64,000 bases of DNA, taken from sequence record ON210138.1; one strand, written 5' to 3'. Shown in pieces: positions 47,604-47,737 of this stretch (its first letter is position 1; every line of letters begins with the position of its first letter). Under the pieces are notes generated by a model. That model did no database searches. It saw only the letters and a list, made by a program, of their open reading frames with translations, and was not told the origin of the DNA. This stretch comes from Escherichia phage EC106. The position numbers and the translations under genes were made by a program.

Positions 47604-47737
47604 CCAGACCGTTGTTTATCATCTTAAGTGCTACCATTACACCAACTCGACATCTGCCGAGTGAAGGAATCGAACCTTCGCCTTTTCTTTACCGGAGAAA
47701 TAGATTGTTTAAGTTTTGCTGTAAACGGTCTTCTGTA
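47604..47737 (-). ncRNA. candidate Y-RNA-like / tRNA-mimic ncRNA (terminal stem enclosing T-arm-like and D-arm-like segments)
   Basis: Flanking complementarity ACCAGACCGTTG (47604) with AACGGTCTTCTG (47725); interior on minus strand has intact T-arm GAAGG-TTCGATT-CCTTC, a 5 bp hairpin, and D-arm-like GTTGGTGTAATGGTAGCAC, but no acceptor stem could be paired. Confidence 0.35.

Follow-up and report, generated by a model that had tools for sequence, protein, structure and literature searches.

In the bacterial Y RNA YrlA, a 5′ motif is followed by four stem-loops: V, which is poorly conserved, T, AS, which is conserved in structure only, and D. The 5′ and 3′ ends of YrlA are paired, and its gene is nearly always located less than 4 kb from that of a Ro60 ortholog, with both genes on one strand (Chen et al. 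2014, PMC4201824). YrlA from M. smegmatis is reported to be cut by RNase P and to carry a CCA end. The Ro60 protein of the Thermus phage phiLo binds the phage RNAs Yrl1 and Yrl2 as well as the host PNPase (PMC12135203; PDB 9KOP, 9L5Y). We analyzed a 64,000-nucleotide stretch of Escherichia phage EC106 (sequence record ON210138.1; the whole stretch is called the window), a Felixounavirus, that is, a Felix O1-like myovirus of ∼88 kb. The minus strand of the window contains an element of ∼138 nucleotides (nt), Y4 (47601–47738), in which a terminal module encloses a permuted tRNA-like core. Y4 is a candidate YrlA-like Y RNA, and we consider it probable that it is a phage-encoded RNA of the YrlA type, which partners the phage's own Ro60-like protein. 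An initial annotation of the window had described a stem-enclosed tRNA mimic at 47604–47737, and all features that it named are indeed present in this interval; they can be read correctly on the minus strand only, which is the strand of the phage tRNAs.

Read from 5′ to 3′, Y4 consists of UUAC, AGA, AGACCGUU, the motif UACAGCAA, a linker, the V hairpin and AGGC, followed by the T arm, ACUCGGC-AGAU-GUCGAGU, UG, the D arm, a linker, AACGGUCU, a single G and GUAA. The resulting layout is V-T-AS-D enclosed by a 5′/3′ terminal stem, and the minimum free energy (MFE) fold of Y4, a check proposed in the initial annotation, yields precisely this architecture (−32.8 kcal/mol). At the base, UUAC (47735–47738) and GUAA (47601–47604) form a 4-bp helix, followed by an asymmetric internal loop with an invariant AGA on its 5′ side (47732–47734) and a single G (47605) on the other. 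The AGA is identical in Y4, in three shorter paralogs (Y1–Y3) and in every Ounavirinae copy. A kink-turn was considered for the AGA/G loop and ruled out, as no tandem G-A pairs follow the bulge. The main terminal stem pairs AGACCGUU (47724–47731) with AACGGUCU (47606–47613) over 8 bp. The terminal pairing drawn in the initial annotation thus exists (on the plus strand, ACCAGACCGTTG at 47603–47614 and AACGGTCTTCTG at 47724–47735) but is really composed of the 8-bp stem, the AGA/G loop and the 4-bp basal helix. The motif UUUACAGCAA (47716–47725) adjoins the 5′ stem strand, is present in Y1–Y4 and presumably represents the recognition site for the Ro60-like protein.

The enclosed core starts with the V, or anticodon-like, hairpin UUUCU-CCGGUAA-AGAAA (47684–47700), whose "anticodon" reads GGU and which has a cytosine at position 33. 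The T arm GAAGG-UUCGAUU-CCUUC (GAAGGTTCGATTCCTTC, 47679–47663) is invariant in Ounavirinae and had rightly been called near-canonical. The AS hairpin ACUCGGC-AGAU-GUCGAGU (47645–47662) has 7 bp including one G-U pair and a 4-nt loop, and not 5 bp as first described for the hairpin that separates the T and D elements. U8-G9 and the D arm GUGU-AAUGGUA-GCAC follow (47628–47644), the D arm itself (GTGT-AATGGTA-GCAC in the DNA, 47642–47628) accounting for the D-loop-like sequence noticed earlier.

Because the YrlA architecture pointed to a nearby Ro60 ortholog, we examined the 471-amino acid (aa) open reading frame (ORF) located directly upstream of the tRNA cluster (48738–50153, minus strand), with Y4 lying 1.0 kb downstream of this gene on the same strand. 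Its product, a homolog of Bas63 gp130, matches Pfam DUF2828 and DUF7788, weakly matches VWA_2 and is assigned to PHROG 850 ("RNA-binding protein"). The AlphaFold2 model (pLDDT 89.9, pTM 0.89) features a helical ring and a vWA domain with a MIDAS, whose residues are invariant across the protein family. A Foldseek search with this model returned Ro60/TROVE structures as all of its top 11 matches and nothing else over the full length. Judged from the predicted structure, the 471-aa protein has a Ro60 fold. In Bas63, a Felixounavirus, gp130 has been described as a Ro60-like protein encoded upstream of tRNAs, some of the annotated tRNAs were guessed to be Y RNAs, and gp130 alone, either plasmid-borne or inserted in T7, counters the Ppl defense (PhageMaP preprint). 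The Bas63 annotation over the Y4 region is an opposite-strand coding sequence (CDS), bas63_0137; the real Y RNA candidates, which lie in unannotated gaps, thus differ from the annotated tRNAs. Our literature search returned no paper that links DUF2828 or Felixounavirus Y RNAs to such elements.

We retrieved 80 viral loci with a gene for a relative of the protein; in 65 of them (L024–L088), referred to as distant loci, this relative shares only 38–47% identity with it. Protein relatives amount to 2,564 among 8,000 scored candidates and to >600 stretches in IMG/VR. A crude search for the T-AS-D pattern is sufficient to reveal elements adjacent to the gene in five of the distant loci. We built a covariance model (CM), R1, from 13 sequences and ran it over 845 kb with a cut-off of E ≤ 1. 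Y4 scores 106 bits (E = 3e-21), and all of the 128 matches are found on the strand of the DUF2828 gene (128/128). With tRNAs masked, a match is found no more than 1 kb from the gene in 49/65 distant loci, and the distance is at most 300 nt for 52 of 91 matches. In 11 distant loci, we find long forms that include a tRNA-like core (E < 1e-6). Distant members have no anticodon loop, and the stem at its place is built from the 5′ and 3′ segments instead. tRNAs are found near the DUF2828 gene in 24/65 distant loci (up to 14, all on the strand of the gene) and are absent from the other 41. The arrangement suggests a recurrent unit in which a Ro60-like gene is accompanied by Y RNAs and an array of tRNAs.

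Several distant loci contain additional RNAs. A tandem of five Y-like RNAs, some having T and D arms with no acceptor hairpin, is located upstream of the DUF2828 gene in L026 (4087–5885, plus strand). In L064 (8191–8315, plus strand), the stem and a CAGCAA module surround a tRNA-like domain in native order (D, anticodon-like and T arms), which makes this RNA closer to D. radiodurans Yrn1 than to YrlA. The Rfam tRNA model matches an element in L076 (8352–8413, plus strand) with its positions 5–66 only, corresponding to a tRNA minus its acceptor stem. In L074, the DUF2828 gene is followed at a distance of 2.3 kb by a phage tmRNA encoded on the same strand (9710–10201, plus strand; 87.3 bits).

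To judge conservation at close range, we compared Y4 among Felixounavirus, Suspvirus and Mooglevirus, three genera within Ounavirinae. The T arm, D arm and terminal stem are nearly invariant, and the AS stem shows compensatory substitution by genus (CUCGGC/GUCGAG, CCCUUC/GAAGGG and CACG/CGUG). We then assembled 21 long-form homologs aligned to the covariance model (set A4), in which 90.1% of the paired cells can pair, compared with 31–46% when the partners are slid. Compensatory changes are found at 23 of 25 pairs, and the covariation score is 0.74 versus ≤0.20, with the observed values reached by 0/500 shuffles. All seven AS pairs show compensatory changes (93% of cells paired), and in distant homologs the T stem covaries at four of five pairs and the D stem at three of four. 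U8 and A14 are present in 21/21 sequences, the GG of the D-loop is conserved, and the Levitt tertiary pair 15:48 alternates between G:C (8 sequences) and A:U (4). The terminal stem, assessed over 114 distinct CM matches, is 87% paired, with compensatory change at 8/8 pairs. An alignment fitted to a model favors the structure of that model, but the slid-partner control argues that such a bias is insufficient to explain the 90.1% pairing. A MAFFT alignment of the distant homologs had register errors; it served to seed the model only, and the matches were realigned with the model. As far as comparative sequence analysis can tell, Y4 is a real, conserved and structured RNA. A DNA-level inverted repeat or mobile element is ruled out by the strand-specific distribution of the CM matches and by the covariation of the stems.

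The same comparison bears on whether Y4 could be a remnant without function, left behind when a tRNA was rearranged, or belong to a small protein-coding gene. Several GenBank records annotate hypothetical proteins across Y4, and 85-aa ORFs exist on both strands. Compensatory changes are however seen in every helix, the element is kept in three genera, and its architecture recurs in distant phages. Its lengths among relatives (140, 139, 136, 135, 134, 132 and 131 nt) do not differ by multiples of three, and there is thus no conserved reading frame across Y4. We regard a relic or coding origin as extremely unlikely.

Y4 is not called as a tRNA by ARAGORN, with or without introns and at lowered thresholds, and the Rfam tRNA model produces a partial match of 22 bits, below its 29-bit threshold. 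The view of Y4 as a mimic that is non-functional as a tRNA therefore holds, also in light of its unconserved anticodon loop, and the normal intron-containing tRNA named in the initial annotation as the refuting case does not materialize. Once the 5′ half is returned to its place ahead of the 3′ half, ARAGORN calls a full 74-nt tRNA-Thr(GGU), in the window as well as in Sf15 and SUSP2. The core of Y4 thus corresponds to an entire tRNA in circular permutation, with the break located between positions 26 and 27. The 7-bp AS hairpin occupies acceptor positions 66–72 and 1–7, and hence an acceptor stem, thought to be missing, is present but closed by a loop. Likewise, the CCGGTAA hairpin (47700–47684) had not been accepted as a convincing anticodon arm. 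It has C33 and an unconserved loop, and in the de-permuted sequence it serves as the anticodon arm. SUSP2 and Sf15 carry a canonical CUGGUAA loop with U33 at this position, ESh phages have CUAUAAA (AUA), some Felixounaviruses show a 1-nt deletion, and the loop is replaced in Moogle and HP1. The acceptor loop starts with N73-CCA in 8/20 family members, which points to a permuted or tandem tRNA as the source; the window copy reads AGAU, with no CCA.

Permuted tRNA genes of Cyanidioschyzon merolae give rise to functional tRNAs via a bulge-helix-bulge motif and a circular intermediate. As in Y4, their 3′ half is encoded ahead of the 5′ half and a short linker joins the acceptor strands; every part of the tRNA is present in Y4. 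In contrast to them, Y4 contains neither a bulge-helix-bulge nor a cleavable linker with a CCA/discriminator end, its anticodon is decaying, and its flanks form a conserved stem of a protein-binding type. We tried to fit the flank to a bulge-helix-bulge splicing motif, but its geometry is wrong (4 bp, AGA/G loop, 8 bp). A functional tRNA would moreover form its acceptor stem from free 5′ and 3′ ends and have a conserved 7-nt anticodon loop with U33, whereas the acceptor stem of Y4 is loop-closed and such a loop is not conserved.

A true circularly permuted tRNA-Thr(GGU) gene, whose transcript would be ligated at 26/27 and opened at the acceptor loop to yield a decoding tRNA, could explain why all parts are present and the de-permuted sequence is called, why SUSP2 and Sf15 have retained U33, and why N73-CCA starts the acceptor loop in 8/20 members. 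We nevertheless consider such a gene very unlikely: the anticodon loop is unconstrained (C33, AUA, a 1-nt deletion or outright replacement) and missing from distant members, the window copy has no CCA and a loop of just 4 nt, and the flanking stem is not a bulge-helix-bulge. No tRNA-splicing endonuclease is known in bacteria. The GenBank record of REP6 annotates a 131-nt tRNA-Thr(GGT) at Y4; we rejected this assignment, as only five of seven acceptor pairs form (GCCAAUU, taken from the neighboring element, with ACUCGGC) and there is no D arm.

Y4 is embedded in a cluster of 25 tRNAs called by ARAGORN (43280–48572, all minus strand; the initial annotation had counted about 26), 22 of which are also confirmed by Rfam. 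It sits in a tRNA-free gap of 456 nt (47455–47910) between tRNA-Asp and tRNA-Lys, an interval that is matched by 251 phage records, mostly at 95–99% identity; Y4 itself is conserved in 251–252 records. A signature search for the lower module in the window returned four copies, each of them a minus-strand element within the tRNA cluster. Y1 (48328–48406; R1 score 31.4 bits) fills the spacer between tRNA-Glu and tRNA-Met, and Y2 (48175–48239; 29.8 bits) that between tRNA-Met and tRNA-Asn. Y3 (47746–47826; GAGC-AGA-AGACCAA-AUUCAGCAA ... UUGGUCU-G-GCUC) is found just upstream of Y4 and is conserved across genera. All four share a 4-bp basal helix, the AGA/G internal loop, the stem AGRCCNN/NNGGUCU and, following it, WUNCAGCAA. 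Their basal helices covary (UGAC/GUCA, UUGC/GCAA, GAGC/GCUC and UUAC/GUAA), and the motif logo of the family, calculated from 92 unique matches, reads U-U-A/U-C-A-G-C-A-A adjoining the 5′ stem strand. Only Y4 contains the tRNA-like core, such that Y4 and the shorter Y1–Y3 mirror the arrangement of YrlA and YrlB, a shorter partner that sometimes accompanies YrlA and does not have the full tRNA-like domain.

The exact fit of Y1 and Y2 between tRNAs, and the 7-bp acceptor stem of Y4 as an RNase P determinant, would be expected of processing signals, that is, of spacers that recruit RNase P, RNase III or RNase E to punctuate the tRNA transcript and have no function as stable RNAs. We hold this to be highly improbable given that 41/65 distant loci have no tRNA at all, many of them with RNAs beside the DUF2828 gene, and that the conserved, single-stranded 9-nt motif is foreign to such RNase sites. 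Y4 could alternatively act independently of the Ro60-like protein as a tRNA decoy, absorbing a host tRNA nuclease or another tRNA-binding defense factor. Its T/D elbow is intact, as is the acceptor stem; Y4 is surrounded by phage tRNAs, for which a role against tRNA nucleases has been proposed; and gp130 is able to act without Y4. A decoy would, however, leave unexplained both the lower module common to three RNAs that have no tRNA-like part and the same-strand linkage to the DUF2828 gene in 49/65 distant loci, and we judge it improbable.

We favor Y4 as a YrlA-type Y RNA based on its comparison with YrlA (RF02553). Y4 has a 5′/3′ stem, a weakly conserved V hairpin, a T arm, an AS hairpin and a D arm, and its family shows covariation at Levitt pair 15:48. 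The T and D arms fit the tRNA consensus, the V-T-AS-D order and the paired ends are those of YrlA, and the AS stem covaries. A gene for a protein with a predicted Ro60 fold is located nearby on the same strand, within the ∼4 kb typical of YrlA, even though the protein is not TROVE by sequence, and shorter, YrlB-like partner RNAs accompany Y4. The 7-bp acceptor-like stem is shared with M. smegmatis YrlA, and the N73-CCA in 8/20 members fits the reported RNase P cleavage and CCA end of that RNA, whereas the window copy, with its AGAU loop, has no CCA. The initial annotation had missed the closed acceptor stem, the complete permuted tRNA, the YrlA architecture and the upstream Ro60-like gene.

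Y4 also differs from YrlA. It has UUACAGCAA in place of the GNCGAAN0-1G motif, its protein partner is DUF2828/DUF7788 and not TROVE by sequence, it is embedded in a phage tRNA array, and its V hairpin is a recognizable anticodon arm, so that a whole tRNA is present in permuted order. In phiLo, by comparison, the protein is TROVE by sequence, and the RNAs have a CGAA motif and no described tRNA-like domain. Both an RF02553 family model that failed on Y4 and the missing GNCGAA motif lead us to file Y4, despite its YrlA architecture, as a variant of YrlA.

Several observations weigh against this assignment. The YrlA motif GNCGAAN0-1G is missing, and the 5′ region of Y4 reads CAGAAGACCGUUUACAGCAA. 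A GGCGAAG at the V/T junction was considered as this motif and rejected, as it is misplaced and unconserved. RF02553 (gathering score 69 bits) gives no match to Y4 at E ≤ 10, and a permissive Rfam scan of 47400–47950, a covariance-model check suggested by the initial annotation, detected no YrlA, Y_RNA or tmRNA match for Y4. The 471-aa protein has no Pfam TROVE match at E ≤ 0.01, and neither phmmer nor a 59-sequence profile finds a Ro60 in the PDB, the likeness being one of fold only. Because gp130 alone suffices, anti-Ppl activity needs no phage Y RNAs. The MFE z-score of Y4 is only −1.4, an unremarkable stability, and the Levitt pair in the window is a non-standard A15-C48. Finally, the T and D arms do not vary within Ounavirinae, and their covariation thus rests on distant loci that are presumed to be homologous and on a model-fitted alignment. 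In favor of the link to YrlA, one family member, L026 5770–5880, is matched by RF02553 over its full length (38.2 bits, E = 2.4e-6).

The lower module resembles a second group of described RNAs. Class I RNAs are ∼60 nt long, start with AAG, end with CUGU, have a 6-bp stem conserved in structure only and an adjacent 11-nt motif, and are reported to be unique to Dictyostelia (Kjellin et al. 2021, PMC7919456). The consensus of the Class I family RF01414 is GaUcuC-CUUACAGCAA ... AAA ... GagAuC-UG, and the Y4 motif UUUACAGCAA matches CUUACAGCAA. RF01414 aligns over its full length and exactly at the predicted coordinates with Y1 (19.7 bits), Y2 (17.4 bits), L035 7410–7470 (28.9 bits; E = 4.9e-4 when the search was targeted to 121 nt) and L037 1535–1592 (25.4 bits). 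It is the best match at all four of these sites, with scores below the gathering score of 41.5 bits. Phage and Class I RNAs both have a short terminal stem conserved in structure only, whose base carries a conserved AAG...CUG and whose 5′ strand is immediately followed by (C)UUACAGCAA, as well as an A-rich segment before the 3′ strand; the short phage forms have a length of ∼60–66 nt. The stem with its adjacent 11-nt motif (C-CUUACAGCAA) is found in Y4 as GACCGU-UUACAGCAA and is similar in Y1–Y3. Class I RNAs measure 42–65 nt, whereas Y4 has 138 nt, and the phage relatives score at most 28.9 bits. Class I RNAs furthermore belong to eukaryotic hosts and have their own upstream promoter element, while Y4 carries a tRNA-like insert, and the only partner named for Class I RNAs in PMC7919456 is the RRM protein Rnp1A, not a Ro60-like protein. 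We regard the resemblance, seen in sequence and predicted structure, as a lead and not as a finding. It is conceivable, though we think it rather unlikely, that the lower module (AAG...CUG stem and UUACAGCAA) defines one RNA class spanning phages and eukaryotes, in which Class I RNAs would be the counterparts of the DUF2828-adjacent RNAs, a DUF2828-type Ro60-like protein would be the shared ligand and Y4 would be a chimera with a permuted tRNA.

For Y4 as a Y RNA, we envisage the following mode of action. Y4 would be transcribed from the minus strand together with the tRNA cluster, which begins shortly downstream of the Ro60-like gene. Two sigma-70-like promoter matches are located between this gene and the first tRNA (48599–48719, minus strand; TTGACA-17-TAATAT and TTGACA-18-TAAAGT) and could drive the tRNA operon; they are consensus matches only, with a frequency not above that in shuffled sequence. 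The host enzymes that excise the neighboring tRNAs would release the Y RNAs, as Y1 and Y2 exactly fill tRNA spacers. Sequence and covariation show that Y4 folds into a lower and an upper module. The lower module with its single-stranded UUACAGCAA is the presumed dock for the Ro60-like protein, based on linkage, conservation and analogy. The upper module, present in Y4 only, has a complete tRNA-Thr-like fold in circular permutation, with T and D arms capable of forming an elbow, a loop-closed 7-bp acceptor stem and a decaying anticodon arm. By analogy with the bacterial Ro60/Y RNA/PNPase complex and with phiLo, this module may confer nuclease resistance and could serve as a handle for host PNPase, RNase P or tRNA-modifying enzymes. 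The phage ribonucleoprotein might redirect or inhibit host RNA processing, or tend the phage tRNAs.

The surroundings of Y4 contain further features. Module C (47459–47602, minus strand; ∼145 nt) directly follows Y4 on its 3′ side and is enclosed by a 24-bp stem (UUAUCUUUGUAGAUAAG...). Compensatory changes distinguish the genera both in this stem and in a hairpin inside it (CAGAC/GUCUG versus CAAAC/GUUUG). Module C has no Y-RNA signature and no Rfam match, and the Bas63 annotation there is the opposite-strand CDS bas63_0138. Between tRNA-Asp and Y3 (47831–47910, minus strand) we find two conserved hairpins, GAGAGGGCUAUUUAGCCCCUC and UUAAAGA...UCUUUAA, as well as a 25-nt insertion, AATTATAATAAGTATTTCAAAATGATG, which is present in the window and in SFPB and missing from most relatives. 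Three ORFs, all on the minus strand, are interspersed among the tRNAs: 43454–44251 (DUF7217, 265 aa), 44640–45197 (DUF7338, 185 aa) and 46117–46638 (173 aa, PD-(D/E)XK_5 endonuclease-like). A group I catalytic intron (RF00028, 62.9 bits, full length) is located at 11738–12013 on the plus strand. Searched at gathering thresholds over the window and 11 loci, Rfam returned nothing beyond tRNAs, the group I intron and tmRNA.

Conservation of Ro60 and Y RNAs extends from bacteria to humans, yet what they do is still poorly understood. Our analysis provides one candidate RNA partner, and three shorter ones, for the Felix O1-type Ro60-like protein, which was recently reported to act against host defense. 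Contrary to the guess that annotated tRNAs fulfill this role, the candidates are unannotated RNAs located between tRNA genes. The comparisons point to a large, unrecognized phage family of such RNAs: RNAs with a common signature lie beside DUF2828/DUF7788 genes in most of the 65 distant loci and would constitute a large class of phage ribonucleoprotein RNAs that is missing from Rfam. The system is tractable, as the phages infect E. coli and Salmonella and Bas63 knockouts exist. The Class I match provides a testable hypothesis for an abundant, developmentally regulated class of RNAs whose mechanism has been open since 2004, and if a single class did span phages and eukaryotes, this one family would connect tRNA mimicry with both Y RNAs and Class I RNAs.

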